Positions 38,346 to 58,722 of a stretch of DNA of 64,000 nt are shown here, in pieces. A program made the translations under genes and the position numbers. The stretch spans positions 92,012-156,011 of the forward strand of contig JAHDCX010000006.1 of NCBI GenBank assembly GCA_020629635.1, written 5' to 3'. The notes beneath the pieces were generated by a model. That model did no database searches, was not told the origin of the DNA, and saw nothing but the letters and a program-made list of their open reading frames with translations. Source of the stretch: Acidimicrobiales bacterium. GTDB lineage: Bacteria > Actinomycetota > Acidimicrobiia > Acidimicrobiales > SHLQ01. The first letter of the stretch is position 1. Each line of letters opens with the position of its first letter.

Positions 38346-38373
38346 GGCCCGGAAACTCAACAGTTTCCGGTCC
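38346..38373. terminator. Hairpin CCGGAAAC-TCAACA-GTTTCCGG with T-rich flanks on both strands (bidirectional terminator)
   Basis: 8-bp perfect stem at 38349-38356/38363-38370. Followed by CCTTGTCGTTGT on the plus strand and by TTTCGCTT on the minus strand, downstream of the TIR gene. Confidence 0.5.
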
Positions 38374-38431
38374 TTGTCGTTGTCTGGTGCCGGACGGCGA
38401 TGTACCAGGACGGGACCATGCCAAACCGGTG

Positions 38432-39550: not shown

Positions 39551-39559
39551 CCAGGGAGT

Positions 39560-40688: not shown

Positions 40689-40698
40689 GCGTGCCGCC

Positions 40699-40907: not shown

Positions 40908-41035
40908 GTCGGAACCTCTTATGAGGGTTCTGGCCAGGCCCCGGGGGTGTTGGCGCACCGCCGGGGCCACTTATTGTCGACGGAAAAGACTACCGATAGG
41001 CGAGACGTTGTCAACGTGTATAGACTCAATTCATC

Positions 41036-41242
41036 ATGGGAAGACTGGTCGACCTTGACGATTTGATTGACGTCGGTGAAGTTGCCGAGATCCTCGGCCT
41101 GGCGCACAAGAACAGCGTCACCACGTACATGCGTCGATACGACGACTTCCCGGAGCCAGCGATCGAATTCGCGGACGGCAAGTGCCGGACCTGGTTGCGG
41201 CAAGACGTTGAAGGCTGGCGTGCTACGCGTGAGGACGGCTAG
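41036..41242 (+). CDS. Small HTH DNA-binding protein (AlpA/excisionase-like)
   Basis: 68 aa. IDVGEVAEILGLAHKNSVTTYMRRYDDFPEP...WLRQDVEGW. Confidence 0.6.
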   Translation: MGRLVDLDDLIDVGEVAEILGLAHKNSVTTYMRRYDDFPEPAIEFADGKCRTWLRQDVEGWRATREDG

Positions 41243-41291
41243 TGGATTTGGTCAGATCCAAACAACGCGTCGCAGACCACGTCGAGGCACG

Positions 41292-42116
41292 GTGCGAGTG
41301 ATTTCGAGAACGACACGGTCGTTCAAGAGGTGTTCGGCGACGAGATTGCCTAGCCCTGGCTTCCGAGCCGCCACCGTTTCGGAGCTCGCCCGGAGTCGGC
41401 TGGCAGACTACATCGACGTCGCAGCTTCGAGGTTGAAGAGAGCCTCAAAGCGGCTCAGACCCCAAGTGGCCCGCTCGGCCGAAAGGTCCCAGGAGTTTTG
41501 GGAGTCGCTGATCCCCAGGATCAAGGACGACGTCGTCTACCTCCACTCGACTCGGCATAGGTTCGAATTGCTTGTCGAGGCCGCCAGAAATCCTGAGATC
41601 CCCGAGCCAAACCACGTCATGGAGTACGTAGCGGGCCTCTACGCGAACACGGTGCTCGTGGGGTTGCGCCGACAGGCGGACAAAGATGATCGAACAGCGA
41701 GTCTCCGAGTGCTCCTCCGAGACCTGCGACAGCATCCCAAACATGCGACGCGTGATTGGTACGTCGCAAAGTATCCGGCACACCTCGAGGACATGGCGAA
41801 CAGCACCTTCGATAGGTTCACTACAGAAGTCGGAGACCAGTACATCAGCCGCAAAGAAGTGGAGCAGGACCTAGCGCGACTTGGGTCGGTGACGAAAAAG
41901 CTGACCCACGTGGTGAACAACCAGATCGCACATCTCAATCAGGCTCCCGAAGGGGGTGAGGCCACGTTTGCGGATGTATCGGCTGCGCTGAAGGCATACG
42001 AAGATCTCGTGCAGCGCTACTTCTTGCTCGTCGACGGCGCAGCGCTCACAGACGCGACGCCAACGCTGCAGTTCGATTTCCTGCGACCGCTGCAAGTGCC
42101 GTGGGTCGAGCGCTAG
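41292..42116 (+). CDS. Hypothetical helical protein, possibly AbiU2-type HEPN-like
   Basis: Codon-plausible part of ORF 41067..42116. No ATG, so a GTG start at 41292/41298 is assumed. C-terminal ...KKLTHVVNNQIAHLN resembles the xxxAH end of HEPN Rx4-6H motifs, but the Arg is missing. Confidence 0.4.
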   Translation: MRVISRTTRSFKRCSATRLPSPGFRAATVSELARSRLADYIDVAASRLKRASKRLRPQVARSAERSQEFWESLIPRIKDDVVYLHSTRHRFELLVEAARNPEIPEPNHVMEYVAGLYANTVLVGLRRQADKDDRTASLRVLLRDLRQHPKHATRDWYVAKYPAHLEDMANSTFDRFTTEVGDQYISRKEVEQDLARLGSVTKKLTHVVNNQIAHLNQAPEGGEATFADVSAALKAYEDLVQRYFLLVDGAALTDATPTLQFDFLRPLQVPWVER

Positions 42117-42426
42117 CCCGGAGGTGTCAAACCTGTGTCAAGCGAACCGAGTGCAACCGACGAGCCTTTCCCGTAAGGGTCCGTACGGGAGGCCTGTGAA
42201 AACCGCACGATTCCGGTGGTTCCCGAAGGCTTTGGCACCCACCCGGACCACCGTACGTAACTCATAAACCGAAGGTCGCCGGGAGCGTCGGTAGGACGTG
42301 AGCGACGCGCAATGCGACAACTTCCATCACCCGCCAACCCAGCTCGACGCCGGCTCGATATCGAACGCCACCGTCGGATCAGATACAACGGCGATCACAG
42401 AGTCATCAACTTGACGGGAGCCAGGG

Positions 42427-43023
42427 GTGTCGCGGTTGGATCTAAAGGCTTGTCTCGAAAGAGGCACACGTCATTTCTTGGAGGCGTGGTACGGAGTTGA
42501 CCTGCTCGGAGCTGACGCTCGGTGGGGCTCACAGCCAAAGCCCTTGCGCGAATGGTGGGGCTGGCAAGAGGCATCCGACGTGGCGTTCATCCACCAGAAC
42601 CATCTGCTGAGCGAGCTTCGCAGCCGAGATCAGTTCACAGTCTTCTACGTCGAAAACCAGGCTGTCGTGCAGTGGGCGTATGAAACTGCTAGCGATGACC
42701 CCGACCCGGAGGTCTTTGAGCGGACCAATGCCGACCAGTCGGCTTGGGAACCCCTGGGTATGCCGATGTCCCAGTTCTTGCTCCTGATCGCCTGTTTCGA
42801 AGCGGCCATCGGCGCGGAGCACGCGCTATGGGTCAACGACCCGACTGCAGAGCACGTCGACCTGTTGACCGACGGTCTTGCGCTGGCCGACGGAGCAGCT
42901 TTCTGGGAGATGCAGGTCTATGTCGGCGACGAGGCAGTCCTTACGCTCCACTCCAACACCGTCGCGATCTATTCCTCACCGGATCCCTCAGTGATCGAAG
43001 GTAAACGAGACAGCCTGTCGTAG
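42427..43023 (+). CDS. Hypothetical protein (Trp-rich, possibly SMI1/KNR4 (SUKH)-like)
   Basis: GTG start. 198 aa. No catalytic motif recognised. Lower-GC codon usage. Confidence 0.4.
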   Translation: MSRLDLKACLERGTRHFLEAWYGVDLLGADARWGSQPKPLREWWGWQEASDVAFIHQNHLLSELRSRDQFTVFYVENQAVVQWAYETASDDPDPEVFERTNADQSAWEPLGMPMSQFLLLIACFEAAIGAEHALWVNDPTAEHVDLLTDGLALADGAAFWEMQVYVGDEAVLTLHSNTVAIYSSPDPSVIEGKRDSLS

Positions 43024-43271
43024 GCGCCGGCTTGCCCAGTGATTGCGTTGCTAGAGCACCGGTGGAGGATCGTTGTCAGCCCGCTGATGGCGGGTGGCCA
43101 GCCCCGAAGTAACGGCACTTGCTCGAGTAGGGAGTTGACCTGATTGCCTGTCTCGCTCAGTGAGTGATCGCTACAGATTTGTGGCTCTTCCGGGGTTGTT
43201 CGAGCCGACCGTCGATGCCTGGCGAGGGGTAGATCGCTGAGGGTCGGCGGGAGGTAGGGGTGTGAGGACCG

Positions 43272-44648
43272 TTAGTCGAGGCTCACTCGCCATCTTCCGT
43301 CAGGGGCGCCTTTGCTTGGTATCGCTGGCGGTGAGAGAAGGGGAACCGACGGCAGCTCTTCTGTGGCTACCTCGGGGGCCCGCTCGCGTCGACGTGGAGC
43401 GCGGGCTTGGTAGGCGACCAGGTCCTGCAAGACGTCTCCGTAGAAGGACTCGATCGCGTCCACGACAGATTGGGAGAATCCAGGCTTCTTCCCCGCCTTG
43501 CGGTTTTGACCCATCTCACTTCGCGCCACAAGTCGGAACTTCACGGGGTCCCTCTTTTGATCGCTCAGGAGCACGGCTGGATCAGTGCGCACCGCTTCGA
43601 GGGTGGCAGCCGATCCGCTGCGAGCATTCTTCGGAAAGGCCTCGACAACAAGACCGGCTGGCGCGTCCTTGAGCTGTCGGGTGAGCCATCCGATCCTTCC
43701 CTTCGCACCCTTGTCTCCCGGTGCCTCGAATGAGGTGGACACCAAGATCTGTCGAGCCTTCAGGTCGACATCGATCTCGAGATCCGAAATGGTGTCGGGG
43801 ATTCGGAGCGCTCCGCTGAGTTTGCCCTCGATAGCAAGCTCCTCTACGAACGATTTCGTCCGAAGTGAGGGATCAGCGACATGCGCTCGAGGGACGACTT
43901 CCTGTACGTCTTCGCCGATGTCAGATCCCAGCTTCAAGCTTGCGTAGCCAAGGAGCTGGTCCCAGCGTTGCGCGATATCGACCACTGCATCGTCACGCTT
44001 GTTCAGCGTGCCGTTGCGTCCGCCATCCCGAACCTCCACCCAGTTCTCACCCATGTCGTCGAAGCCCACTGCACCGGATGCGGGATGCTCGAGGTAACGG
44101 ATGAGCTCGCCAAGGATCCATGTTTGCTCTGGGTCATCGATCCCACGGTGCACCTTTTCCATCACCGCCGTCGTCAGTACCCGAGTCCAGCTGATGTGAT
44201 GAAGCGCCACCTTCGAGTTGGCTCGCAGCTTCAGTCCCGAAGGATGTGCTCCCGGCGAGGCTGGAATCTCATTCGAGATACTGAGCACGCAGTCGTACCC
44301 ATTCTCCTTTGCCACATCGACATACCGCTCGAGCTGCTCCGAATCGAGCTTCGATGAACCAGACTTCACCTCAACAAGTCCCACCCACGGCTTTTGACTG
44401 CCGAACGTCACGCGAATCAATCCGTCAGGCCTGACAGTGGTTCCGGTCTTCAGCTTGAAGGTCGTTTCGATGAACGTCTCGACTGTGGCCTTGCCGGCCT
44501 TGCTTGCTCCGAGCGGCGCTAGCAGAGCTATCGAGAACGGCCGCACGACGGAGAGCACCGCCAGCAGCGCTGAAGTCGCTCGCTGCTCGGCTTCCCGGTC
44601 CCCTGAGATCCCTGCGACCGAGATCAAACGCGCTTCTTGCCAACTCAT
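43272..44648 (-). CDS. PD-(D/E)xK nuclease-fold protein with large C-terminal extension
   Basis: Start ATG 44648 (MSWQEARL). RPDGLIRV...WVGLVEVKSGSSKLDSEQLERYV fits the D...(D/E)xK core. About 300 aa of unknown C-terminal domain. Confidence 0.55.
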   Translation of the reverse strand: MSWQEARLISVAGISGDREAEQRATSALLAVLSVVRPFSIALLAPLGASKAGKATVETFIETTFKLKTGTTVRPDGLIRVTFGSQKPWVGLVEVKSGSSKLDSEQLERYVDVAKENGYDCVLSISNEIPASPGAHPSGLKLRANSKVALHHISWTRVLTTAVMEKVHRGIDDPEQTWILGELIRYLEHPASGAVGFDDMGENWVEVRDGGRNGTLNKRDDAVVDIAQRWDQLLGYASLKLGSDIGEDVQEVVPRAHVADPSLRTKSFVEELAIEGKLSGALRIPDTISDLEIDVDLKARQILVSTSFEAPGDKGAKGRIGWLTRQLKDAPAGLVVEAFPKNARSGSAATLEAVRTDPAVLLSDQKRDPVKFRLVARSEMGQNRKAGKKPGFSQSVVDAIESFYGDVLQDLVAYQARAPRRRERAPEVATEELPSVPLLSPPAIPSKGAPDGRWRVSLD

Positions 44649-44834
44649 GATGCCCCCGTGGCCCCCGCCGCTGCTGAATCGCAACCTACCGCGTTGTGTT
44701 GGTCAGTGACGTCAATCCAGCGAGCAGGTGCCCGCTCGAAACAATCGCCAGGCCGCGTTCGCCCAGCCATCGCGAGCAACGTCGACGAAAGCTCGTTCAC
44801 CCCGCATGCGGCGAAGCGGCAGCACAGGACACCG

Positions 44835-45689: not shown

Positions 45690-45810
45690 GATCTCAGCTT
45701 CTCATTCTCGCTGGCCTGCGCGCTCGGTCGAGTGTCAGACCGGCGTCGTAGGTTTGGTGCATCGAAGGCTCCGCGCCTTCCGCAGCACAACATCACGGGG
45801 AGCTTGGCCG

Positions 45811-46224
45811 ATGGCCATCACACCTGCCGAACTCGAACTCGTCCGAAATGAGCTCGACGCACGAATCACCGCTGTTACTGTCGAGCACGTGAGTATGGCG
45901 CAAGCGATCGGATCCTACAGTGAGCGATTCACCGCGCTGGATGCCCGTTTCGACGCAATGGACTCGCGCATCGATGCTGTCGAGCTTCGACTCGACTTCG
46001 TCGTCCAGGACATGGAACGCCGGTTCACCGAAGTCGACCGACGCTTTGACGGTGTCGACCGTCGACTCGATGCCCTCGACCGACGCATGGAGCGGCTCGA
46101 AGACCGGATGGTCACGCTTGATCGCAAGATCGATCTGCGGTTCGGTTGGCAGACGTTCCTCATGGCCGGACTTGCGGTGCTCGTGCTCTTCGACGACGCG
46201 ATCACTACCGCCCTCGGGCTCTGA
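45811..46224 (+). CDS. Coiled-coil protein with C-terminal TM anchor (repetitive DxRFDxxDxR heptad-like repeats)
   Basis: Start ATG 45811 (MAITPAELELV). LDARFDAMDSRIDAVELRLDFVVQDMERRFTEVDRRFDGVDRRLDALDRRMERLEDRM. C-terminal TM segment FLMAGLAVLVLF. Confidence 0.55.
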   Translation: MAITPAELELVRNELDARITAVTVEHVSMAQAIGSYSERFTALDARFDAMDSRIDAVELRLDFVVQDMERRFTEVDRRFDGVDRRLDALDRRMERLEDRMVTLDRKIDLRFGWQTFLMAGLAVLVLFDDAITTALGL

Positions 46225-46240
46225 GTCGCCTCTCAAACCC

Positions 46241-46387
46241 ATGCACGAGCTCTGGGACGAGATCGACGGCGAAGACCCGTCACCGATCTGCCCCCGATGC
46301 GGAGTGAGCGCGCTCGCCCCAGAGATGCCCGGTGGCGAATCGGTCTGCGAGAACGGTGCGTGCGACGGGTACGGCGAACCGATCTGA
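46241..46387 (+). CDS. 48-aa zinc-ribbon mini-protein (CPRC...CENGAC)
   Basis: Own reading: MHELWDEIDGEDPSPICPRCGVSALAPEMPGGESVCENGACDGYGEPI. Lies 16 nt after the preceding stop. This is the tail of track ORF 45920..46387. Confidence 0.4.
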   Translation: MHELWDEIDGEDPSPICPRCGVSALAPEMPGGESVCENGACDGYGEPI

Positions 46388-46523
46388 CTGCCGCTGCGCT
46401 GTCGCCGGTTACTGTCGAACGCATGCACGTCGGAGACGCACACGAACGTTGGGAGTCGGCCGAGGGATCGACGGGAGCGCTCGAGGAGACTGAAGGTCTG
46501 CCGGGCGTCGCCGATTGACCACG

Positions 46524-47693
46524 ATGCAGCCCGCAGCGCCGACCGACGCTCTGCCGACGCCGACGTACCACCGCGACCTCGCCGAGCACTTCGAGCAGGT
46601 CGAACCCGAACTGTGGTCGTGGTTTGGGGAGTCGTCGGCGCTCGCCGAACGACGCGACGAGGCCGCCGAGCTCGCACTCCTCAAGTCGGCGTACCGACTC
46701 GACGGTGGGCCACACGCCGTGCTCGTGGGCTTCGCCACGATGCTCGCGACCCGATTCGGTATCGGCGAACCGATCGTGTTGTACCAAGCACTCGGCGACA
46801 ACGACCGCAACGCCCGAGTGTTCCGGCTCAACAGCCAGGTCCACGTCGTCTTCTCCGGCGACCTGCTCGACCTGCTCGACACCGACGAGCTCCACGCCGT
46901 CCTCGCCCACGAACTCGCCCACATCGCGCTGTGGAAGCGAGACGGCGGCCGGTACTTCGCCCTCGACCACCTGGTCGAACGCCTCGCAGGCGAGATCGCG
47001 GCGCCCGACGCGCTCGTCGAGACGGCGCGACGTCTTCGCTTGCACACCGAAGTGTGGGCCGACGCCATGGCCGTCGACGCTGTCCAGAGCGTTGCCGCCA
47101 CCGTGTCGACGATCGTCAAGGTCAACACCGGTCTTCGACACGTCGACCCCGACGCCTACCTGCGGCAGGCCACCCAGATCTTGGAAATGGATGGGGGAGC
47201 GAGCCAGGCATGGTCCCACCCCGAGCTGCACATCCGGGTCGCCTGTATCGAAGCTCGAGCACGGTCCAGTGCCGATGGGGTCATCGACGAGCTGATCAAC
47301 GGCCCTGACGACCTCGACCGCATCGACCTGCTCGGACAAGCCCGGGTCCAAGCCGTCAGCGCACGTGTGCTCAACAGCGGCGCAGCGGTCGCCAACCGCT
47401 CCGAGGCCGTCGCCCAGTACCTGGCGGGCTATCCAGAGCTCGCGGTCAGCGCTGCCGGAGCGGTCGCCAACGGCGAGCTCATTGACGCGGAGCCGTCCAT
47501 CCGATGGTTGGCCGCCGCGTTGCTGGTCGATCTCACCCTCGCCGACGGTGGAACGGACACGCTCGACGATGTCCGAGCGCTCGCACGTGAGGCCGAGCGT
47601 CAAGGCGTGGCCATCGAGTTCGACAAGATTCTCGCCAAAGCGACCGAACAGACCCCCGCTCAGGTGCGCGCGTTTCGGGGCGCCACACGATGA
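46524..47693 (+). CDS. M48-like zinc metallopeptidase, soluble, with helical C-terminal domain
   Basis: HExxH in LHAVLAHELAHIALWKRDGG. No TM helices. C-terminal LAAALLVDLTLADGGTDTLDDVRAL looks TerB-like. The stop overlaps the start of the helicase gene (ATGA 47690-47693). TTG 46515 or ATG 46524 as start. Confidence 0.7.
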   Translation: MQPAAPTDALPTPTYHRDLAEHFEQVEPELWSWFGESSALAERRDEAAELALLKSAYRLDGGPHAVLVGFATMLATRFGIGEPIVLYQALGDNDRNARVFRLNSQVHVVFSGDLLDLLDTDELHAVLAHELAHIALWKRDGGRYFALDHLVERLAGEIAAPDALVETARRLRLHTEVWADAMAVDAVQSVAATVSTIVKVNTGLRHVDPDAYLRQATQILEMDGGASQAWSHPELHIRVACIEARARSSADGVIDELINGPDDLDRIDLLGQARVQAVSARVLNSGAAVANRSEAVAQYLAGYPELAVSAAGAVANGELIDAEPSIRWLAAALLVDLTLADGGTDTLDDVRALAREAERQGVAIEFDKILAKATEQTPAQVRAFRGATR

Positions 47694-50600
47694 CCTTCGC
47701 CCGCCTGCTGTCCGAAGTACTCACGGACGAGCTCCCGCGCACCGGAGATGTCCTTGCGGTCGGTATGCCGCTGCTCCGTCACATCGATTCGCTCCATCGC
47801 CACGGTCAGGTCACCGGCGCGTCTGGCGTTTCCGCGCTCGACTACGACGGAACCCGCCTTCACGTCAGCGGGTCACAGCCGGCAGGAGAGGACTCGAATC
47901 GGCCGGCGGTCGAGCTCGCCACCGCCCATCTCGCCTCGAGCGGAGCACAACTCTGGAGCCATCGCCAACACGACGATTCCGGCGGCGGGTGGGGGAGAAC
48001 GTCGAGCCTCGATGTCTTCGATCCCGATGACGGTGTGCCGCCGCGACCGATGTTCGTCGCCGGGTACCGGGTGTGGGAACAGCTCCACGGACACCACGAT
48101 CCCCTCACCGACGTGGCCCTGTGCGGTCTGTGGCTCTGCAGCTTCGCCTTCGGTCTCGATCTCGACACTCCCGACGGCATCGATGCACTGGCCCTCGACC
48201 ATCGCCACCCGAGCCGGCTGAACCCGCACCTGCATCCCGTTGTTGCGTCCACCCTCGTGTCGATGATCGCCCCAGACCGATCGCTTCGGCCCCGCGAGCT
48301 CGGCCACGTCATCACCCGACTCGAACACCACCGGGACGTGCCCGCAGACCTCGACCTCGCCGCCGCGTACGAGTCCGAGACCGACTGGCGCCGAGCCGTT
48401 CTGACGACGCTTCGAGATCGCGTGTTTGACACGACACGCCGCAATCGCGAGCTGTACTACCGGCCGACCGCCTCGAGCGTGTCGCTCACCGAGTCGTCGG
48501 TGCCGCTGATGCTCAACATCGACCGCATCCGCCCCAAGGACCTCCTCACCTGGACATCGCCGTCCAACGACGCACTCCGGAAGGGCAAGACGGTCGACCT
48601 CGCCACCTGGTGCCGATTCGAAGAGACGCCGTATCTCGCGCCAGCGCTCGACAAGCTGATCAGCGCCGAACGAAAGTTTCGTGTCGAGACCGGCCACGGG
48701 CGGCTCCGATGCATCGTCGCCTTTCTGCACTGGCACGACCCCGAGGCCGACGAAGCCGTCACCTCGCCGCTCCTCACGCTGCCGGCCACGCTGACTCGGA
48801 AGAAGGGCCTCGAGACCAGGTATCAGCTCGAGCTCCCCGGCGACGACGCCACCGTGAACCCGATCCTGCGGCACGTGTTCGCCGGCCGGTTCGGCATCGA
48901 CCTCCCCGCACACGTGGGGACCGGTCCGGACGAGATCGCGGCCTTCGCGCAGACGCTCGAAGCGCAGGTCCGAAAGAGCGCACCCGCAGTACAGATCGAA
49001 CTGGTCGACAAACCTCGCATCGACCTGCTTCGTCGCAAGGCCCAGCTCCGGGTCGACAACTACCGCCGACGACGCGCCCGAAACCTCGCATCGGCCGGGC
49101 GATGGCGGCGACAGGACCACAGCTACGAACTCGACGACTGGCGACCCCTCGGCCAAGCGCTCTACGACCGATTCGTCCGAACCGCCGACCTCCCGCTCCG
49201 CGACGTCGCTGGCGCCGTACCTCGACCGCGTCCGCAGGCGCTTTCGGCGCCGACAGACGCGGCACCCCCGCCCCCGGGTTTGCCAAGCGAAGAGCGAACC
49301 GCCGATATCTACTCGATCACCGGAGCAGACGCGTCGGCCGACCGTTGGCAAGTCGACCTTTGCAGCGTCTCGCTCGCCGTGCTGGGCTCGCGTCGTACGA
49401 CGCTCTCGCGCGACTACGACGACGTGCTCCGAGCCGAGAGCACCGTCACCGTCGAAGACACTCCGTTCGAACATCTCTTCCGGCCCGAACCGTCACCGGC
49501 GCCCGCCGCAGAGACCGAGCCGATGCGGATCGATCAGCGGCTCGTGCTCCCCGCCGACGATGCCCAGGCGCGGGCGGTCCAGCGCGCCGTGCGCGGCGAC
49601 TCGTTCATCATCCAAGGCCCGCCCGGCACCGGGAAGAGCCAGACGATCACCAACGTGATCGCTGCGCTCGCGGCGGCGGGCAAACGGGTGCTCTTCGTCT
49701 GTGAGAAGCGGGCGGCGATCGATGTGGTTGCGCATCGCCTCAACCAGGTCGGCCTCAGCGACCTCACCGCGTTGATTCACGACTCCCAGCTCGACCGAAA
49801 GGACTTCGTCAAACAGCTCGGCGCCACCTACCACTCGTGGCTGGACGACCGGCCGGACGAACCGGCCGACGGCCAACCGCCTGCTCCATCGGAGACACAG
49901 GTGCGACGCAACCAGCTCCTCGCCCGCTTCGGCGAGGCCGTCCGCCCGCTCGACGCGATGAACGGAGAGCTCGGCGCAAGCCTCGGCGGCGGACTCACCG
50001 TCGCCCAAGCGATCGAACGTGTGAGCCTCCTGTCCGAGGCTGGCAGCGACGCGGCGGTCCCGCTCGCACCAGACGAGTGGGTGTCGCTGCGTCCACGCCT
50101 CGACCGTGTCGCCGACGCGCTTGCCGCGGCCGGGTTCACCGGTCCGCTGGCAAGCCACGCTGCGCTGCGTGTTCGGCCCGGGTATCTGGGCGCCGATGCC
50201 GTGCAGAGCGCACGCAACGTCGGCGCTGCGCTCACCGACGCGGTCGGCGGGGTCGTCCCGACTCTCGACCTCGCCGCAATCACGACCTCGGGCAGCTGGC
50301 AGCCCACGCTCCTCGCCGCTGCCGAAGCGGGTGGCCTCGCCGCCCTCGACCCGACTCACCCACAACACCTCGATCTCCGGGCCGCTGCGCAACGCCAAAC
50401 CGAGCTCGACGCCTTCGTGGCCGAGACCGGCACGGTTCTGACGCGTTGGGTGACCCCGCTTTCTGCGGCCGACACTGCGGCGGGCCTTGACGTTGCCCGA
50501 AGCAAAGAAGGGTCCATCTTCAAGGTCTTCAATGGACGGTGGCGAGCACTGCGAAAGACCGTCGAGGCCGCCTACGACTTCGGTCAGCACCAGGTGCGTC

Positions 50601-52738
50601 CAACGATCACGGCGGTGCTCGAAGAACTGCACGCCCACCACACCGCAGTGGCCGCAGCGACAGCGCACGCGGCCACCAACGAAGGAACCTTCGGCTCGGC
50701 TGATGCCGTCGTCCTCCGAGCCTTCGTCGATGACAATCACGCCCGGCCCGGCTACAGCGACCTGGTCGGCGCCGGCGCATCGCTCCGGGACCGGCTCCAG
50801 CAGAACACGGCGATCGCGGATGCCGTCAGCCCGTTGTTGGTCAGCTCGACCATCACCGTTGCTGACCTCGAACGGCTCGGTGCCGAGCTCCAAGCCACGC
50901 CGATCGGGGTCGAGCCGGCGCTGCTGGCCTGGGCCGACATCGGGGCGGCGCCAGAGGAGGGGCTGCTCGGCCTCGTCGACGCGAACGCCTCGCTCGACGT
51001 GATTGAAGCCGGTGTTCTTCGACGCGAACTCGACCGTTGGGCGAGCACCATCGATCATGTCGCGTTTTCCGGAGCGCACATCGATCACGCCATCGACACC
51101 GCCCGGTCGATCCACAGCGACCTGCTCGACATCAACGCCACGGTCGTCATCGAAGCCGCACGCGCGGCGTTCCTCGCCAACATTGCACACGCCGATGCGT
51201 CGATGGCGGGCCGCAGCGATGACGACAAGGCGCGCAAGCGGGTCTACAACGCGGGGCGGCGCATCGTCGAGCGCGAGTACGAGAAGAAGATGCGCCACCG
51301 CTCCATTCGCGAGATGGCGACGGGGGAGAGCGGCGTGGTCGTACGCGACCTCCGCCCCATCTGGCTGATGAGCCCGCTGTCGGTCTCCGACACACTCCCG
51401 CTCGAAACGGATCTGTTCGACGTCGTGATCTTCGACGAAGCGAGCCAGATCCCCGTCGAAGATGCGGTGCCCTCGGTCTTGCGGGCGCCGCAAGTGATTG
51501 TGGTTGGCGACCGTATGCAGATGCCGCCGACTCGATTCTTCTCCTCCGACGACGATGACGACGCCGAACTCGTCGTCGACGACCACGGGCACCGGCTGTC
51601 CATCACCCTCGATGCCGACAGCTTCCTGACTCAGGCCGATCTGGCGCTCGACTCGTCGATGCTCAACTGGCACTACCGGTCACGGTCCGAGTCGCTGATC
51701 GCCTACAGCAACCATGCCTTTTACGGCGGCGGGCTGGCGACAATCCCCGATACCGAGCTGCCAAGCGGCGAGCAGCCGGCCATCAAGGTCGATTCCGCCG
51801 ACGACGCCATCGCCAACACCGCCACCACCCTCGAACGCGCGATCAGCTTTCATCACGTCGATCACGGCGAGTATCGGGACCGCCGCAACGTGCCGGAGGC
51901 CGATTACATCGCCGAGCTCGTCCGGTCGGTCCTGCGATCTGGGGTCGGCCACACGATCGGCATCGTCGCCTTCTCCGAAGCCCAACAAGGGGCGATCGAA
52001 TCCGCGCTCGACGACCTTGCGGCCATCGACGCCGATTTCGCCGAACGGTACGAAGCCGAACAATCACGTACCGACGACGACGAGTTCGTTGGGCTGTTCG
52101 TCAAGAACCTCGAAAACGTCCAGGGCGACGAACGTGACCTGATCATCATGAGCGTCTGCTACGGCCCGGACCCGCACGGCCGGATCCGGATGAACTTCGG
52201 CCCGATCAACAACTCCGGCGGCGAACGGCGACTGAACGTGATCTTCAGCCGGGCACGCAAGCACATGGCCGTCGTGGCATCGATGCGCGGCAACCAGATC
52301 ACCAACCTGCACAACGACGGGGCCTCACACCTCGCCGGGTTCCTGAGCTACGCCGAAGCCGAGAGCCTCGGCCGAGTCGATGCGGCAACCGCGCTGCTAC
52401 GCACCGCCAGCCGCCAACGCCACGAGTCCCACGCCAGCTCGCCCGTCGCGGACGCCATGGCCGAAGCGCTGCGAGCGAACGGCTGGACGGTGACGACCAG
52501 CGTTGGCCGCTCGGACTTCCGGATCGACCTCGCGATCACCGTCGACGGTGATCATCGCGTCGGCGTGCTCCTCGAACCCGACGACGGCGAGCGTGCCGTG
52601 TCGCGCAACGTCACCGAAGCCGGAGTCCTCGACGCCTTCGGCTGGACGATTCTGCGAGTCCCACTGAGCGACTGGTACACCGATCCAGCACGGGTAATCG
52701 ATCGCGTCGAAGCCAACCTTCCTCACCGAACCGAATAG
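47690..52738 (+). CDS. 1,682-aa multidomain protein: N-terminal kinase-like region + DUF4011 + SF1 (Upf1-like, AAA_11/AAA_12) helicase + DUF3320 + C-terminal Vsr/REase-fold domain
   Basis: TRRNRELYYRP (DUF4011-type). Walker A IQGPPGTGKSQT. Walker B VIFDEASQ. WHYRSRSESLI. QGDERDLIIMS. GERRLNVIFSRARKHMAVV. C-terminal GRSDFRIDLAI...GVLLEPDD...GWTILRVPLSDW. Confidence 0.9.
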   Translation: MTFARLLSEVLTDELPRTGDVLAVGMPLLRHIDSLHRHGQVTGASGVSALDYDGTRLHVSGSQPAGEDSNRPAVELATAHLASSGAQLWSHRQHDDSGGGWGRTSSLDVFDPDDGVPPRPMFVAGYRVWEQLHGHHDPLTDVALCGLWLCSFAFGLDLDTPDGIDALALDHRHPSRLNPHLHPVVASTLVSMIAPDRSLRPRELGHVITRLEHHRDVPADLDLAAAYESETDWRRAVLTTLRDRVFDTTRRNRELYYRPTASSVSLTESSVPLMLNIDRIRPKDLLTWTSPSNDALRKGKTVDLATWCRFEETPYLAPALDKLISAERKFRVETGHGRLRCIVAFLHWHDPEADEAVTSPLLTLPATLTRKKGLETRYQLELPGDDATVNPILRHVFAGRFGIDLPAHVGTGPDEIAAFAQTLEAQVRKSAPAVQIELVDKPRIDLLRRKAQLRVDNYRRRRARNLASAGRWRRQDHSYELDDWRPLGQALYDRFVRTADLPLRDVAGAVPRPRPQALSAPTDAAPPPPGLPSEERTADIYSITGADASADRWQVDLCSVSLAVLGSRRTTLSRDYDDVLRAESTVTVEDTPFEHLFRPEPSPAPAAETEPMRIDQRLVLPADDAQARAVQRAVRGDSFIIQGPPGTGKSQTITNVIAALAAAGKRVLFVCEKRAAIDVVAHRLNQVGLSDLTALIHDSQLDRKDFVKQLGATYHSWLDDRPDEPADGQPPAPSETQVRRNQLLARFGEAVRPLDAMNGELGASLGGGLTVAQAIERVSLLSEAGSDAAVPLAPDEWVSLRPRLDRVADALAAAGFTGPLASHAALRVRPGYLGADAVQSARNVGAALTDAVGGVVPTLDLAAITTSGSWQPTLLAAAEAGGLAALDPTHPQHLDLRAAAQRQTELDAFVAETGTVLTRWVTPLSAADTAAGLDVARSKEGSIFKVFNGRWRALRKTVEAAYDFGQHQVRPTITAVLEELHAHHTAVAAATAHAATNEGTFGSADAVVLRAFVDDNHARPGYSDLVGAGASLRDRLQQNTAIADAVSPLLVSSTITVADLERLGAELQATPIGVEPALLAWADIGAAPEEGLLGLVDANASLDVIEAGVLRRELDRWASTIDHVAFSGAHIDHAIDTARSIHSDLLDINATVVIEAARAAFLANIAHADASMAGRSDDDKARKRVYNAGRRIVEREYEKKMRHRSIREMATGESGVVVRDLRPIWLMSPLSVSDTLPLETDLFDVVIFDEASQIPVEDAVPSVLRAPQVIVVGDRMQMPPTRFFSSDDDDDAELVVDDHGHRLSITLDADSFLTQADLALDSSMLNWHYRSRSESLIAYSNHAFYGGGLATIPDTELPSGEQPAIKVDSADDAIANTATTLERAISFHHVDHGEYRDRRNVPEADYIAELVRSVLRSGVGHTIGIVAFSEAQQGAIESALDDLAAIDADFAERYEAEQSRTDDDEFVGLFVKNLENVQGDERDLIIMSVCYGPDPHGRIRMNFGPINNSGGERRLNVIFSRARKHMAVVASMRGNQITNLHNDGASHLAGFLSYAEAESLGRVDAATALLRTASRQRHESHASSPVADAMAEALRANGWTVTTSVGRSDFRIDLAITVDGDHRVGVLLEPDDGERAVSRNVTEAGVLDAFGWTILRVPLSDWYTDPARVIDRVEANLPHRTE

Positions 52739-52803
52739 GGGCGACGGAATCTCAACGCCTTCTGCGATGAAGCTCGTACACGCAAGCGGAAGGCGGACAA
52801 CCC

Positions 52804-54534
52804 ATGGGACTTCGAGAGACCGACATCACACGACGGTGGCCAGACGGCTTGGTGCCCTACGAGATCGACAGCGGCTTCTCTGCGGCACAACGCCAAGAGA
52901 TCCTCGATGCCATCGACCTGGTGAACCGAAGCACCAACGCCACCTTTGCGCCACGCGACGGCGAGGCCGACTTTGCCCGCTTCGCGCCCGCATCCGGGAG
53001 CTGCGGAACGCGGACAGGCCGTGACCCAGGAGCAAACACGATCAGTTGTGATCTGAGCACGTTCTCGACCGGCAACGTGGCTCACGAGATGTTGCACGAA
53101 CTCGGGCATCATCACGAACACGTGCGTGAGGACCGAGACACGTTCGTCACGATCCAGTGGGCAAACATTCAGGCGGACCGCTGCGGCAACTTCAAGCGCA
53201 AGGTCGATCCTGAACCAGCCAACTACGACGACTGTGCCGATACCTACGATCCGGCGACGCAGACGCTGAGGACCGAAGACGTTGGCACCTACGACTACGG
53301 ATCGATCATGCACTACGGCGAGACGTTCTTCCTTGCGTCGGGCGCCACGGGCCAGACGATCACGCCGATCAATCCGGCCGGTGCCGCGATCGGGCAACGG
53401 GCCGCACTGAGCGACGGCGACATCGCCACGGTCAACGACACCTACGACACGGCAGCGATCTACGTGCGGGACAACCTCACCGACGACGGGGAGGAGCCCC
53501 TCGTCGGAGGCGGCCTGTCGCGCAGTCCCGACATCATCCACGTGCCCGACGAGCCTGCGGACGCGCAAACCCTCTACTCGACTCCTGCCGCAATGGCCGC
53601 CGACAACCTGTCGGAGGACGTCGAGTTCGGCCAGACGAACTTCGTCTACGTCCGTCTCCAAAAGAACGGCACGTTGACCGACACCGCCAACGTCGATCTC
53701 TATTGGACCGAACCCTCCACGCTTCCGTCGCCGACGAGCTGGACGCAGATCGGAACGACGCAGACGGAGGCGGCAATCGCTCCCGGCGAGATTCGAATCG
53801 TCGGTCCATTCCTGTTCAACGACGTGCCCGCTGAGGGCCACTACTGCTTTGTCGCAGTCGTCGGGAGCCGGAAGAACCCGGCTCCCGACCTCGCCAGCAT
53901 CTCCACTGGGTCCGACTTCCACGACCTCGTACGGGCAAAGAGCAACCTCGCGTGGAAGAACTTCGACGTGGTCAACGTCGAGGAAGGCGGCGACACCGAC
54001 ATGGACTTCCACGTCCAGAACATGCGCGGTCGATCAGACGACAACTCGCTGGAGCTCGATCTTTCCTCGCTCCCGGCGTCGGTGACGGCGCACGTGCGAA
54101 TGGTCTCGAGGCTTGCCAAAGCGGGGCAGCTCCGCAAGCTCCAGATCGCCCAAGAATCCGCTCGCCAGACCACGATGGCCACCACCGGTTCGTTCGGGGT
54201 GCACGCCATCGATGGCATGACCCTTCCGTCTCGCGACGACACGATCGTCCGGCTGTCGATCGACGTTCCCGAAGGCACGCCGCACGGCGCCTATGACATC
54301 TCCGCTCGCCAAACCCAGAACGGCCGCGAGGTTGGTCGAGTCACCCGGCGCCTCACCGTCGGGCGCTTTCCCTTCATCGGCAACCGACGTTCGATGGAGC
54401 TCCACCGAGCGAACTGTCCGTGGATCCCGAAGATGTCGCCACGCAACAAGGTGCCGTTCGATTCGCTCGAGCGGGGGTTGCGGCGCGGCTTCGACGGGTG
54501 CCATACGTGTCTCGAAGAAGAGGACAACGGTTGA
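52804..54534 (+). CDS. Astacin (M12A)-type metalloprotease without signal peptide or prodomain, fused to a beta-rich middle region and a C-terminal Ada-like Cys-rich Zn module
   Basis: RWPDGLVPYEI at residues 10-20. HEMLHELGHHHEHVREDRD (HExxHxxGxxHE...R.DRD). Met-turn SIMHY. C-terminal ELHRANCPWIPKMSPRNKVPFDSLERGLRRGFDGCHTC. Confidence 0.8.
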   Translation: MGLRETDITRRWPDGLVPYEIDSGFSAAQRQEILDAIDLVNRSTNATFAPRDGEADFARFAPASGSCGTRTGRDPGANTISCDLSTFSTGNVAHEMLHELGHHHEHVREDRDTFVTIQWANIQADRCGNFKRKVDPEPANYDDCADTYDPATQTLRTEDVGTYDYGSIMHYGETFFLASGATGQTITPINPAGAAIGQRAALSDGDIATVNDTYDTAAIYVRDNLTDDGEEPLVGGGLSRSPDIIHVPDEPADAQTLYSTPAAMAADNLSEDVEFGQTNFVYVRLQKNGTLTDTANVDLYWTEPSTLPSPTSWTQIGTTQTEAAIAPGEIRIVGPFLFNDVPAEGHYCFVAVVGSRKNPAPDLASISTGSDFHDLVRAKSNLAWKNFDVVNVEEGGDTDMDFHVQNMRGRSDDNSLELDLSSLPASVTAHVRMVSRLAKAGQLRKLQIAQESARQTTMATTGSFGVHAIDGMTLPSRDDTIVRLSIDVPEGTPHGAYDISARQTQNGREVGRVTRRLTVGRFPFIGNRRSMELHRANCPWIPKMSPRNKVPFDSLERGLRRGFDGCHTCLEEEDNG

Positions 54535-54550
54535 CGTCTACTGTTGGGTC

Positions 54551-54874
54551 ATGAACGCACCACAGGGATGGACATTCGCCGATTCGAACGCGCTCGACTG
54601 GCAGCCAATGGGTGATTCGTACGCGATGAAGCTGCTCGGGGTCGCCGACGGCAAGATGCTTGCGATGTTCCGTTTCGAACCCGGCTTCGATGGCGCAGCG
54701 CATCCACACAACGAACCGGAGTTCACCTACGTGCTCGAGGGATCGATCGTCTCCAATGGTGTCCAGATGGAGGCCGGACACGGCTATGCCGCCGTCGCCG
54801 GAACGACACACGAGGAGTTCCGGACCGACACGGGCTGCACCGTCGTCTCCGTCTTCGCGGCTCCAAGCGGCTGA
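54551..54874 (+). CDS. Small cupin-domain protein (ChrR-like cupin)
   Basis: Start ATG 54551 (MNAPQGW). AHPHNEPEFTYVLEG...TTHEEF. Confidence 0.65.
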   Translation: MNAPQGWTFADSNALDWQPMGDSYAMKLLGVADGKMLAMFRFEPGFDGAAHPHNEPEFTYVLEGSIVSNGVQMEAGHGYAAVAGTTHEEFRTDTGCTVVSVFAAPSG

Positions 54875-54876
54875 GC

Positions 54877-57078
54877 TCAGGCGGCGACCGAGGCCGAGGC
54901 GGGACCGTCCTCGAACAGGGGATGGATCGTGCCGAAGCTCCGGCAAACCTCCGAAGCTCGCATTGGCCGGGCAAGAAGAAAGCCCTGGAGCACGTCGTAG
55001 TCGAGGTCCGCCACCAGGCCGAACGCCTCGACCGTCTCAACGCCTTCGAGGACGACGTTCAGCCCGAGATCCTTTCCGAGGCTGACGATGCCACGGAGCA
55101 GTCGGCTCTGACGCCGGTCGTTGACTGCGGCGGCGATGAAGCTCCGGTCGACCTTGACTTGATCGACCGCCAGGTCGTGGAGATAGCTGAGCGACGAGTA
55201 TCCGGTGCCGAAATCGTCGATCGAGAGTCGTACGCCGAGAGCGGTGAGGCCGTCGAGCACCGTCTTGTGCCATCCGGTCGCATCGGGGACCAACACGCTC
55301 TCGGTCAGCTCGAGACAGAGCCGGCCGCGAGCGACGGGATGTGCTGCGAGGAGCTCGGCAACCTGGTCGACAAAGTCGGGGCGCCGAAGCTGAATGGTCG
55401 AGACATTCATCGAGACGATCGGGACGTCGATACCGGCAGCAGCCCATTCGGTGATTTGACGACAGGACTCGGCGAGGACCCAAGCGCCGAGCTCGCCGAT
55501 CAGACCGGTGCTCTCCGCGATCGGAATGAACTCCGACGGAGGAATCGGTCCTTCGACGGGGTGGTCCCACCGCGCGAGCCCCTCGACGGCGACGACGTGA
55601 CCCGCATTGTCGTACAGCGGCTGGTACGCGACCCAGAGCTCGTCGTCGTCGAGGGCCCTCCTCAGCTGCGACGTGAGGTGAACCTGGCGTTCGAACGAGG
55701 CAGACAGATGAGGCTCGTACACCATCGACCTGCTACTCCGGAGCCGCTTGACCTCGTAGAGGGCAAGGTCGGCGTGACTCATCGCGTCTGCTGACGTGCG
55801 GCCGTGGTCGGGGATGACAACGACCCCCACACTCGCGGTCACCCGCGCTTCACCAGAGGAGGTCTCGAAGTCGCCTGACACGCAGCGGTGCAGTCGATCG
55901 ATCAACTCGTCGACTCCCGCAACGGGGCGGGGGCCGATCGCCGAGAGAATGGCGAACTCGTCGCCACCCAATCGGGCGACGAACTCACCAGCGCCGGACG
56001 CAGTGGTCAAGGCTGCGGCGATCGTGCTCAAGAGCTCGTCACCGGCTTGATGGCCAAGGCCGTCGTTCACCTTCTTGAAACCGTCGAGATCGAGGATCGC
56101 CAGCGCGAAGCCGTCATCCGAACTCTCGATCGCCTCGAATCGGCGGTCGAGCTCCTCGATCAGGGCGGCACGATTCGCCACATTCGTGAGGGCATCGGTG
56201 TACGCCTGGTGCTCGAGGGTCTCGCGAAGCTCGGCGACCTTCGCGAGGCCCTTCGCGAGATCGCCGATCTCGTCGCGTCGTGACGTCAGCGAGGTGGGAG
56301 GACGGTCCGTGTTCCCTGCAGATCCGAGGGAATGGGCGATACCGCTCAGCCGATGGAGCGGGCGGAAGGACAGAAACATGACGACGACCCCGACGGTTCC
56401 GAGGACCGCAAGGAGGCCGACGGCAAGAGCGATCGCATCGTCCGTGGCTTCGCCGTTGATCCGGTCCAGGTCGTCCACCCACCCGACGTCCACGGCGAAG
56501 ATCCCTGTCACCGACCCGTCAGGCGCGGTGACCGGCGTGAGGTACGCCATCCGTAGCCGGCCGGCCACAGGGACCTCTCCAACGAAGGGTTCGATCGACA
56601 TGATCGCGTCGTAGGCCGGGTGCGCAGCGCCGATCAGGCCCGGCTCGACGGCAGAACCCCCGACCCGTTCGCCCTCGGGAGTCCGAAACGTCGTCGAGAG
56701 ACGATCGAACGATGAGGTCTCGGATGAGAAGCGGAAGAGGTTGGCGGCGCCCTGATTGATCCCACCGATGTCATCGACGAGGTCGTCCCACACCGGGCCG
56801 GGCCGCATCATCTCTGCGGGAATCTCGATCGAGAGGGGAGAGCCGTTGCCGTCTCGCTGGACAGTCGATCCTTCGACTCGCTCCGTCAGCAGCGTCGCAG
56901 CGGCGCGACCAGCCCGATCCACCCTGACAGCGGTGTTCTCCGCGTTGATTTCGCGTAATTGGCCGAGTCCGAGCATCGTCAAGATCCCGAGGACGAGGGC
57001 CCCAACCACGATGAAGTAGCCCGTCGTGCGCGCCGGAAACCTCCACCCAGATGGACGAGACGGCGCGCCAGCTTCCAC
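54877..57078 (-). CDS. Membrane sensor GGDEF-EAL protein (extracytoplasmic Cache-like domain)
   Basis: Likely GTG start at 57078 just before the TM helix GYFIVVGALVLGILTMLGLG. Periplasmic domain, second TM, HAMP-like linker, GGDEF (RLGGDEFAIL), EAL domain (EGLARW, ELTES, DDFGTGYSS). The rest of ORF 54877..58389 is a spurious extension antisense to the next gene. Confidence 0.85.
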   Translation of the reverse strand: MEAGAPSRPSGWRFPARTTGYFIVVGALVLGILTMLGLGQLREINAENTAVRVDRAGRAAATLLTERVEGSTVQRDGNGSPLSIEIPAEMMRPGPVWDDLVDDIGGINQGAANLFRFSSETSSFDRLSTTFRTPEGERVGGSAVEPGLIGAAHPAYDAIMSIEPFVGEVPVAGRLRMAYLTPVTAPDGSVTGIFAVDVGWVDDLDRINGEATDDAIALAVGLLAVLGTVGVVVMFLSFRPLHRLSGIAHSLGSAGNTDRPPTSLTSRRDEIGDLAKGLAKVAELRETLEHQAYTDALTNVANRAALIEELDRRFEAIESSDDGFALAILDLDGFKKVNDGLGHQAGDELLSTIAAALTTASGAGEFVARLGGDEFAILSAIGPRPVAGVDELIDRLHRCVSGDFETSSGEARVTASVGVVVIPDHGRTSADAMSHADLALYEVKRLRSSRSMVYEPHLSASFERQVHLTSQLRRALDDDELWVAYQPLYDNAGHVVAVEGLARWDHPVEGPIPPSEFIPIAESTGLIGELGAWVLAESCRQITEWAAAGIDVPIVSMNVSTIQLRRPDFVDQVAELLAAHPVARGRLCLELTESVLVPDATGWHKTVLDGLTALGVRLSIDDFGTGYSSLSYLHDLAVDQVKVDRSFIAAAVNDRRQSRLLRGIVSLGKDLGLNVVLEGVETVEAFGLVADLDYDVLQGFLLARPMRASEVCRSFGTIHPLFEDGPASASVAA

Positions 57079-57156
57079 AGTTCTTGATCGGCTCTTGACG
57101 GAGTGCTCTGTAGCGCCGTGACGAACCGCTCTGCCGGGCTGGGCCAGACTCCACTC

Positions 57157-58722
57157 ATGGCTGAAATGCGTCGAGCAGCAGACGACCAGACCTTTCATGA
57201 CGACATCGAGGCCTATGTCGGTGCATTGAGCGCGCGCGTGGGGGATCCCGTGCCGCTGCACGTGTCGACACGGTCTCGGTCCTGGTCCCTTCGGATCGAG
57301 CGCTGGGGTGCCTCCCGCGAGCTCATATTCGAGGCGACAGGGCTTCCGGGCGAGTTCCACGAGCCGCCAGAGGATGCAGACTCGAACGGGTGTGGATGGC
57401 CCGTCGCTTTCCAGATCGACACGACCGGCTGGTCGCCCGGATTCCATCTCGTGACGCTGACCGCAGCCGACGCTGCGCCCGGCCGGGAGCACTCGCATGC
57501 CGGCTTCGTGCTTCGGAGCGCCCTGCCGGTCCAGCAGCGACCGTCGATTCTGCATGTCGTACCGACCAACACCTGGAACGCCTACAACACCTGGGGCGGA
57601 AAGAGCCTGTACACCGGCGGGACCGCAGTCTCGTTCCATCGTCCTTTCGCCAGAGGGATGTTGTGGCGACCGACCGTGGATCGTGACGACCGCAAGGCGA
57701 GGCCGACCCGACACGGAGAAACGCCCGATGTGGACGGGCGTATCTTCCAGGCGTATCGAACCGAGCATGGCTATCCGTCGGCGATCGGTTCGACCGGTTG
57801 GTTCAGCCACGGCCGGCGATTTGTCGAGTGGGCAGAAGCCGACGGGCTTCAGCTCGACACCGCGGTCTCCAGCGATCTCGCCGACGTGCCAGATCTGCTC
57901 GAAGGGCGAGAGGTCGTCGTGCTCGTCGGCCACGACGAGTACTGGGCGGCAGATGAGCGGCTGGCGCTCGAACGCCACGTCGCGGCTGGCGGCCGGCTCG
58001 TCTCCCTGTCCGGCAACACGATGTTCTGGCGCGTCCGCCACAGCACGGGCACGCACGGTCCGACGATGGTCTGTCACAAGTACCGCGGGCACCTCGACGA
58101 CCTCGGCGAGCGAGACCCGGTCCACCCGGGCCCGAGCACCGGGATGTGGGCCGACCCGTCGATCGGCAAACCCGAGTGGCAGCTCCTCGGCGCCGGATCT
58201 GCCTTTGGCCTGTACCACCGGTTCGGTCGGGCGACGCCTCGCGGGACCGGAGGACATCTCGTGGGCCGGCCTGACCATTGGCTTCTGGCCGGTACCGATT
58301 TGCGCTACGGCGACGTCATCGGCGCACCGGACGGCGTCGTCGGCTACGAAACGGTTGGCTGCCCCCTCACGCTCGATGAGTTTCACCAACCGGTGCCATC
58401 AGAGGTTGCCCACTCGTACGGGGTGCCACGTGACACCGAGATCGTGGCATGGTGCCCGGCGAGCAATGTCGGAGTCGGCGAGTACCCGGCGTCCATCGCG
58501 GCGCTCAGCGACCAAGGAGATCTCGAGTTCATCGCCGAACGGATCTTTGGCGACCGTGATGACTCGATTCGGAGGGCAAGGAACGGTACGTCGGTGATTG
58601 CCACGGTCGGCGGCGACCAGGTGGTCACCATTGGGACGACCGACTGGGTGTTCGGACTGGCCAGCGACCCACACGTCGCCCAAATTACGCGGAACGCGCT
58701 CGCCGGCCGCCCTGTCACCTGA
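57157..58722 (+). CDS. N,N-dimethylformamidase large-subunit-like family protein
   Basis: Start ATG 57157 (MAEMRRAADD). PTNTWNAYNTWGGKSLY and the overall pattern resemble the DmfA2-type family. Assignment from memory. Confidence 0.65.
   Translation: MAEMRRAADDQTFHDDIEAYVGALSARVGDPVPLHVSTRSRSWSLRIERWGASRELIFEATGLPGEFHEPPEDADSNGCGWPVAFQIDTTGWSPGFHLVTLTAADAAPGREHSHAGFVLRSALPVQQRPSILHVVPTNTWNAYNTWGGKSLYTGGTAVSFHRPFARGMLWRPTVDRDDRKARPTRHGETPDVDGRIFQAYRTEHGYPSAIGSTGWFSHGRRFVEWAEADGLQLDTAVSSDLADVPDLLEGREVVVLVGHDEYWAADERLALERHVAAGGRLVSLSGNTMFWRVRHSTGTHGPTMVCHKYRGHLDDLGERDPVHPGPSTGMWADPSIGKPEWQLLGAGSAFGLYHRFGRATPRGTGGHLVGRPDHWLLAGTDLRYGDVIGAPDGVVGYETVGCPLTLDEFHQPVPSEVAHSYGVPRDTEIVAWCPASNVGVGEYPASIAALSDQGDLEFIAERIFGDRDDSIRRARNGTSVIATVGGDQVVTIGTTDWVFGLASDPHVAQITRNALAGRPVT

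Follow-up and report, generated by a model that had tools for sequence, protein, structure and literature searches.

Hhe, reportedly the single-gene anti-phage system of Gao et al. 2020, joins in one giant polypeptide a DUF4011 domain, an Upf1-like superfamily 1 (SF1) helicase and a C-terminal Vsr-like nuclease. It protects Escherichia coli against lambda, T3, T7 and PhiV-1, and mutation of the glutamate of its Vsr domain abolishes the activity (bioRxiv 10.1101/2022.06.16.496414). Single-gene helicase-nucleases of this kind are validated anti-phage proteins, and their way of sensing infection is poorly understood. A related chassis occurs in the MTES_1575-type proteins (Anantharaman et al., 2013), where a HEPN domain, a transglutaminase and two winged helix-turn-helix (wHTH, DUF3320) domains are fused to an SF1 helicase and a Vsr-type restriction endonuclease (PMC3710099). 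Here we describe a pair of genes in a 64,000-nucleotide stretch of DNA from an Acidimicrobiales bacterium (contig JAHDCX010000006.1, positions 92,012 to 156,011), the whole of which is called the window. The second gene of the pair encodes a 1,682-aa protein with the same DUF4011, helicase and Vsr-like nuclease parts as Hhe, and the first encodes a soluble M48-like metallopeptidase.

A preliminary description of the window had proposed an undescribed six-gene system, in which this helicase-nuclease is bracketed by the M48-like protease and an astacin and is accompanied by a coiled-coil protein, a Zn-ribbon protein and a cupin. There is no six-gene system at the locus but a two-gene one, because the M48-like partner of the helicase is conserved and the other four genes never co-occur with it. 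The functional unit is 46524-52738, hereafter the cassette, and consists of the following genes:

46524-47693, plus strand: cassette gene 1, M48-like zinc metallopeptidase, 389 aa
47690-52738, plus strand: cassette gene 2, helicase-nuclease, 1,682 aa

Linkage of the M48-like and helicase genes across genomes

The linkage was examined from both sides. Homologues of the two proteins repeatedly lay on contigs of the same length. In a helicase-first sample, a helicase profile was run against one genome per GTDB species, which gave 80 loci, and the query was then split into domains. In 24 of the loci the helicase had an N-terminal domain of the window type (residues 1-245) and upstream DNA was available; an M48-like gene was located directly upstream, on the same strand, in 23 of these. 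Helicases without this N-terminal domain had no M48-like gene in their 10-kb flanks in any of 35 loci (Fisher p 1.7e-15), thus the N-terminal domain is the one helicase feature that tracks the protease gene. The reciprocal sample was collected from metagenomes with an M48-like profile and consisted of genes followed by at least 400 nucleotides (nt) of DNA. The helicase N-terminal domain came directly after the M48-like gene in 59 of 60 cases. The junction is also conserved: a 4-nt NTGA overlap, in frame with the helicase, was kept in 27 of 32 loci, and in the window the M48-like stop overlaps the helicase start as ATGA (47690-47693). Of the two proteases that had been expected to co-occur with helicase homologues, the M48-like one does so, whereas the astacin was encountered at none of about 170 loci.

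The pair was found in at least eight phyla with a patchy spread, and it is inherited together across them. The positive loci belong to Acidimicrobiia, Verrucomicrobiota, Planctomycetota, Alpha-, Beta- and Gammaproteobacteria, Bacteroidota, Bacillota (Oceanobacillus), a 'Deltaproteobacteria' metagenome-assembled genome (MAG) and Victivallales. The sole exception was a locus of Chitinophaga sp. SMAGNO2 (L010), where a full-length helicase (9989-15202) has no M48-like gene and a 771-aa minus-strand open reading frame (ORF) stands upstream instead. A locus of a Planctomycetia MAG (L019, 8563-15173) has a weak M48-like ORF (E 1e-30), a 358-nt gap before the helicase and a helicase frame broken near 13555, and it is apparently a decaying copy.

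When 140 ORFs flanking the pair at 23 loci were scanned with Pfam and PADLOC, no recurrent third gene emerged. All-versus-all clustering of the flanks returned three recurrent 'downstream' clusters; these were rejected, because a conserved WGR extension at the C-terminus of the helicase itself, read antisense or off frame, had given rise to them.

Domain structure of the helicase-nuclease

The following parts were delimited in the 1,682-aa protein, all on the plus strand:

47690-48424, plus strand: clade-specific N-terminal domain (residues 1-245), without a Pfam match, studied by AlphaFold2 (AF2) modelling and Foldseek
48425-48874, plus strand: DUF4011 (residues 246-395), Pfam E 5e-10
49556-52285, plus strand: Upf1-like SF1B helicase core, Pfam AAA_11 and AAA_12
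49616-49639, plus strand: Walker A motif GPPGTGKS (residues 643-650)
residues 760-1186, plus strand: insertion of about 430 aa in the helicase core
residues 1187-1532, plus strand: DEAS and domain 2A motifs
52454-52720, plus strand: Vsr-like / MTES_1575 restriction-endonuclease-fold domain (residues 1589-1677), Pfam E 1.3e-13

The DUF4011 domain, the Upf1-like SF1 core and the Vsr-type C-terminus named in the preliminary description were all recovered by Pfam and by PDB sequence matches, the latter linking the helicase core to IGHMBP2, Sen1, Upf1 and DNA2. DUF3320, which had also been assigned to this protein, was not found by Pfam, and the chain stops 5 residues past the nuclease domain. The PDB sequence search found no solved structure for either cassette protein family. 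The Walker A, DEAS and VGDxxQxPP motifs are invariant in 23 helicase homologues, while in the nuclease domain D1613 is kept in 22 of the 23, and an acidic residue at 1629 and R1639 are present in all. The beta-proteobacterial helicases are about 150 aa longer and carry a WGR domain, which is present as a C-terminal extension in some of the helicases; WGR binds DNA breaks in PARP.

The AF2 model of residues 1-620 had a predicted local distance difference test (pLDDT) score of 77.5. The score reached 80-95 for the greater part of residues 1-220, dropped to 60-65 in three blocks of 10 residues between residues 61 and 100, and was low over 511-545, a part of the linker that follows DUF4011 and is predicted to be disordered (approximately residues 503-545). 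Foldseek matched the N-terminal domain to the Hanks-type kinase domains of PknB, IRAK4 and AMPK with a probability of 1.0, E ~1e-3, a target-normalised template modelling (TM) score of 0.43-0.46 and a root-mean-square deviation (rmsd) of 6-10 Å. The HRD, DFG and VAIK/catalytic Lys motifs were absent among the invariant columns of residues 1-245 as read by eye. The residues that are invariant in this domain include W129-E130, D141..G146, R197 and R200, and the W-E, D..G and PDRxxRP motifs appear to resemble motifs of the kinase C-lobe. The structural model thus suggests that residues 1-245 of the helicase may form a pseudokinase-like domain.

The M48-like metallopeptidase

The product of gene 1 is a soluble HExxH peptidase, as originally described. 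Peptidase_M48 was recognized by Pfam with E 4e-9 (37 bits against a gathering threshold of 20.3) over residues 82-135 only, that is, around the HExxH motif, and neither transmembrane segments nor a signal peptide were found in the protein. HExxH occupies residues 129-133 (nt 46908-46922) and the probable third zinc ligand is E176 (nt 47049-47051). H129, E130, H133 and E176 are invariant among 48 M48-like homologues. A SprT-like Pfam match (E 3e-5) remained just under the cut-off. The AF2 model of the protein had a pLDDT of 91.5, and the top folds found by Foldseek in the PDB were ZMPSTE24, BepA and HtpX, all of them weak (E 4e-3 to 0.3, TM-score 0.17-0.36). Spartan structures (6mdw and 6mdx) were also matched weakly, and more poorly than the M48 fold. 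Comparison of the sequence profile with solved structures returned HtpX only (E 0.0096), and NCBIfam gave weak HtpX-type matches alone. The C-terminal part of about 200 aa is an all-helical domain to which no family was matched.

The protein thus resembles the M48 peptidases HtpX, Ste24 and BepA, its nearest folds, in having HExxH and a downstream Glu. It differs from them in being soluble, in its own helical C-terminal half and in its genetic tie to a DNA enzyme, and the similarity is very weak (TM-score 0.35, E 4e-3). The family is not rare: it occurs in at least eight phyla and numbers, at E<=1e-30, no fewer than 383 clusters (50% identity). All of these are stand-alone proteins of about 400 aa, and a fusion to the helicase was never seen among the 383 clusters. 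PADLOC v2 gave no match for the window protein or for six homologues from other phyla, and the M48-like component is absent from the named anti-phage models of NCBIfam.

Relationship to known defence families

The helicase was compared with the family models of PADLOC v2 and NCBIfam 20.0, the cut-offs of the latter being 2000 bits for Hhe (NF042953) and 1500 bits for ProA (NF058533). In PADLOC the window protein matched PDC-S37 (E 9e-182), Hhe (E 4e-93) and MkoA (E 4e-29). ProA, which corresponds to the PADLOC candidate PDC-S37, was its best-scoring named relative in NCBIfam with 616.5 bits, while the Hhe model gave 436.7 bits with the best stretch at residues 1189-1673 only. Two control loci without an M48-like neighbour (L036 and L056) encode bona fide ProA/PDC-S37 proteins that matched end to end with 1505-2025 bits, the NCBIfam ProA model giving 1825 bits for L036 and 1505 bits for L056. 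In contrast, the M48-linked helicases of Cupriavidus and Oceanobacillus (L012 and L014) reached 640-703 bits, the NCBIfam ProA model giving 669-703 bits, and were aligned only from about residue 567. Both of these and the window protein are without the N-terminal ~570 positions of the ProA family and its C-terminal tail of about 200 positions (profile positions ~1706-1903), which probably corresponds to DUF3320/wHTH. Because the core is shared, the N-terminal ~570 residues differ and the C-terminal tail is absent, the sequence comparison places the M48-linked helicases in a sister clade of Hhe and ProA/PDC-S37.

Each of the described systems shares a part of this layout. Hhe, which joins the same three kinds of domain, acts alone and has another N-terminus, whereas the window clade is paired with an M48-like gene (23/24 and 59/60 in the two samples), and the homology covers only the C-terminal third. 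The helicase core and the nuclease are common with the anti-phage ProA/PDC-S37 proteins, the true members of which have a full-length match and no M48-like neighbour. The MTES_1575-type proteins have the same helicase-Vsr chassis, joined there to a peptidase fold, the transglutaminase (PMC3710099); the combination of a peptidase with this chassis is therefore a recurring one. The window protein, however, has neither HEPN nor DUF3320, and its peptidase is a separate M48-like metalloenzyme. Only the Upf1-like ATPase core is common with MkoA/MkoC of Mokosh and other COG1112 helicase defence proteins; the window protein lacks the phospholipase D (PLD) nuclease, and the partner genes differ. Protease-effector immune modules (PMC12642450) offer a further likeness in the concept of a linked protease that controls a latent effector, but the protease class and the effector are different, and neither M48 nor a helicase is among the search terms of that paper.

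A description of the M48-like and helicase pair was found neither in PADLOC v2 and NCBIfam 20.0 nor in the searchable literature, and the genes are currently annotated as 'M48 family metalloprotease' and 'AAA/WGR/DUF4011 domain-containing protein'. Of the earlier proposal, the M48-helicase half is strongly supported and holds far outside this one genome, but the helicase-nuclease is not a new kind of protein, being a separate clade of the Hhe/ProA/PDC-S37 group.

Mobility of the cassette

The genomic position of the pair differs among relatives, and it is not a housekeeping orthologue fixed at one locus. The relatives with 58-66% identity keep the 4-nt-overlapped pair between wholly different housekeeping genes. 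On Ralstonia megaplasmids the pair was present in 14 records, whereas the adjacent uvrA flank matched 136 Ralstonia records. The megaplasmid of Ralstonia solanacearum CFBP 8695 (L087) carries the pair, annotated in Ralstonia as 'M48 family metalloprotease' and 'WGR domain-containing protein', with a 4-nt overlap; the helicase gene lies at 10146-15647 and a uvrA paralogue immediately downstream at 15871-18795. In Ralstonia strain T11 the homology of the upstream flank ends just before the cassette. Plasmid pLLRS-1 of R. syzygii shares only the cassette with L087 (8886-15673, ~6.8 kb, 92% identity). The shared stretch begins 70 nt ahead of the M48 start codon and ends 26 nt past the helicase stop, and both flanks differ. 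Neither an integrase nor defence genes were found in the flanks of this relocated copy. Thus, the pair moves as a discrete unit of about 6.8 kb that is present or absent in Ralstonia megaplasmids.

Proposed function and alternative explanations

The reading that we favour, with a probability of roughly 0.55, is that the cassette represents a two-gene variant of the Hhe/ProA family of defence helicase-nucleases, accessory in nature and moving horizontally, in which the protease would serve as the switch. The conservation of the catalytic residues of the protease, the ATPase and the nuclease was counted for it. The N-terminal domain and the metalloprotease come and go together, which points to these components as the seat of sensing or control. 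According to the proposed mechanism, gene 2 would be translationally coupled to gene 1 through the ATGA overlap, the helicase, being of the 5′-3′ SF1B type, would load on invader DNA and translocate, and the C-terminal nuclease would cut. The co-translated protease would act via the pseudokinase-like N-terminal domain, which would make up the control switch. Most likely, the protease would license the nuclease by cleaving an autoinhibitory N-terminal region or the linker, or else a bound phage or host protein; the other option is that it might restrain the nuclease on self DNA. A more specific version of protease gating, under which the cassette would stand for a new class of immune nuclease, is put forward only tentatively. 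The dead kinase-like domain could serve as decoy for, or sensor of, some phage factor. Once this domain is engaged, the M48-like protease would be able to cut the helicase-nuclease, or else a bound inhibitor, and DNA degradation would be switched on. If true, this way of sensing would have no described precedent among Hhe-type proteins.

Several observations weigh against the defence reading. The window protein scores far under the cut-offs of the Hhe and ProA families, and the assignment of the kinase fold relies on Foldseek matches of E ~1e-3 with high rmsd. A physical or proteolytic link of the protease to the N-terminal domain is suggested by their co-occurrence alone. No match to the M48-like protein was found in phage genomes or IMG/VR viral contigs. 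The flanks of the cassette contain mostly housekeeping genes, the known defence genes amounting to one reverse transcriptase among the 140 ORFs of the 23 loci. Two Acidimicrobiia loci from sample ERZ25072999 (L082 and L086) share flanking synteny: Peptidase_M19, DUF3726 and luciferase-like genes precede the cassette, and MmgE/PrpD, Rieske and aminotransferase genes follow it. Inheritance within Acidimicrobiia is therefore partly vertical. Moreover, P. aeruginosa has a DUF4011 gene in its core genome (PMC10250203).

The prevalence of housekeeping genes and the near absence of defence genes in the flanks would also suit a function in genome maintenance, where the metalloprotease, similarly to SprT, Spartan and Wss1, would degrade proteins trapped on or cross-linked to DNA and the helicase-nuclease would process the lesion-bearing DNA. 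The SprT-like Pfam match just under the cut-off and the weak Spartan matches point in this direction, as do the WGR domain of the beta-proteobacterial members, the uvrA paralogue adjoining the cassette in Ralstonia and the failure to find the family in phages. However, the protease fold matches M48 better than SprT, the uvrA adjacency is limited to one lineage and no repair family recurs in the flanks. The strain-level presence or absence and the relocation in Ralstonia, as well as the patchy spread over at least eight phyla, speak against a repair function, and the nearest named relatives are anti-phage proteins. We regard repair as unlikely, although it is a serious rival. The mobile behaviour of the discrete cassette could also be accommodated by a toxin-antitoxin (TA)-like or abortive infection device, in which a helicase-nuclease putatively toxic to the cell's own DNA is held in check or degraded by the protease until infection blocks the latter and self-destruction follows. 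Consistent with such a device, the two genes are strictly coupled 1:1 and overlap by 4 nt, the protease gene being the first, no fusion of the protease to the helicase was seen, and one orphan helicase (L010) exists beside one apparently decaying copy (L019). The same Chitinophaga orphan, being full-length, nevertheless argues that the helicase is tolerable without the protease, and the Hhe-type relatives work as single genes; a TA-like function is considered rather improbable.

The original idea of a six-gene system, with the helicase-nuclease flanked and controlled by the M48-like protease on one side and an intracellular astacin on the other, was suggested by the common strand, the short spacers, the lack of detectable terminators and the truly leaderless astacin. 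It must now be considered very improbable. tblastn detected homologues of the coiled-coil, Zn-ribbon, astacin and cupin genes in none of the approximately 170 helicase/M48 loci, and they are absent also beside the closest relatives (58-66% identity). The homologues of the astacin stand alone, with no cupin after them, and the GC content at third codon positions is 0.68 in the coiled-coil ORF against 0.80-0.82 in the cassette. The six genes are packed tightly on one strand in this genome, but four of them are bystanders, so that the packing gave a false lead.

Genes adjacent to the cassette

The preliminary description was accurate as regards the arrangement of the cluster: six ORFs lie on the plus strand with spacers of 16, 136, -4, 65 and 16 nt, including the ATGA overlap. 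Judging from the comparisons above, the four ORFs outside the conserved cassette are its unrelated neighbours:

45811-46224, plus strand: coiled-coil protein, 137 aa, with a hydrophobic C-terminal segment
46241-46387, plus strand: Cys-rich putative Zn-ribbon, 48 aa, CPxC...CxxxxC
52804-54534, plus strand: leaderless astacin (M12A), 576 aa, with a C-terminal module of about 350 aa
54551-54874, plus strand: ChrR-type cupin, 107 aa, Cupin_7

The two small upstream genes, described before as a membrane-anchored coiled-coil protein and a Zn-ribbon, are plausible, because the minus-strand ORF that overlaps them (45793-46677) was rejected, its translation being low-complexity junk. Their domain matches are sub-threshold only: DUF7310 and a gene transfer agent (GTA) head formation protein for the former, and matches with E 0.03-0.08 for the latter. 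In the coiled-coil protein the pattern D-x-R-h-D-x-h-D/E-x-R recurs periodically ahead of a single hydrophobic segment at the C-terminus.

The identity of the cupin was confirmed by Pfam (Cupin_7, E 6e-11), and that of the astacin likewise (E 2.8e-37). In the astacin the zinc site HExxHxxGxxHExxRxDRD (HEMLHELGHHHEHVREDRD) and the Met-turn SIMHY are complete, and the catalytic domain begins at residue 11. Since only 11 in-frame codons precede the ATG, the protein has no leader, that is, neither a signal peptide nor a pro-peptide. The leaderless nature was thus correctly recognized. The Ada-type Cys module, on the other hand, was not supported, as Pfam did not find Ada_Zn_binding in the tail even at E<=5, and the C..N..F..GF..CxxC pattern was seen by eye only. 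Full-length homologues (51-67% identity) are stand-alone genes in unrelated contexts and never have the cupin next to them. The C-terminal module of about 350 aa (residues ~216-576, 53449-54534), which ends in a CPx..N..F..GF..CxxC tail and belongs to no Pfam family, also trails other catalytic domains in proteins of 600-900 aa, among them S8 subtilases, M4 thermolysins and C13/caspase-like proteins. By its sequence this is a protease-swapping architecture.

Surroundings of the cluster in the window

The GC content of the window is about 65%, and the promoter and terminator scan of this GC-rich DNA was uninformative. Tandem repeats were looked for and none were found. An islet of lower GC content (0.60-0.62 against ~0.65 elsewhere in most of the window) extends over 37-44.7 kb and contains the following genes:

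37093-38268, minus strand: rve transposase
38432-39550, minus strand: TIR-domain protein
39560-40216, minus strand: integrase fragment
41067-42116, plus strand: HEPN/AbiU2-like protein

Two unassigned ORFs of 198 and 470 aa are also located in this segment (37000-44700), which probably represents a small islet of mobile or defence character. About 1 kb separates the cassette from this TIR/AbiU2/integrase islet. The preliminary description placed the cluster directly next to a defence-like island, which is partly true, although a PhyH dioxygenase gene on the minus strand intervenes between the islet and the six-gene cluster. Downstream, the cluster is followed by a convergent gene for a Cache-GGDEF-EAL protein (1,170 aa, 54877-58389, minus strand) and then by an aldehyde dehydrogenase gene. 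The stop codons of the cupin and the Cache-GGDEF-EAL gene are only 2 nt apart (54874-54877).

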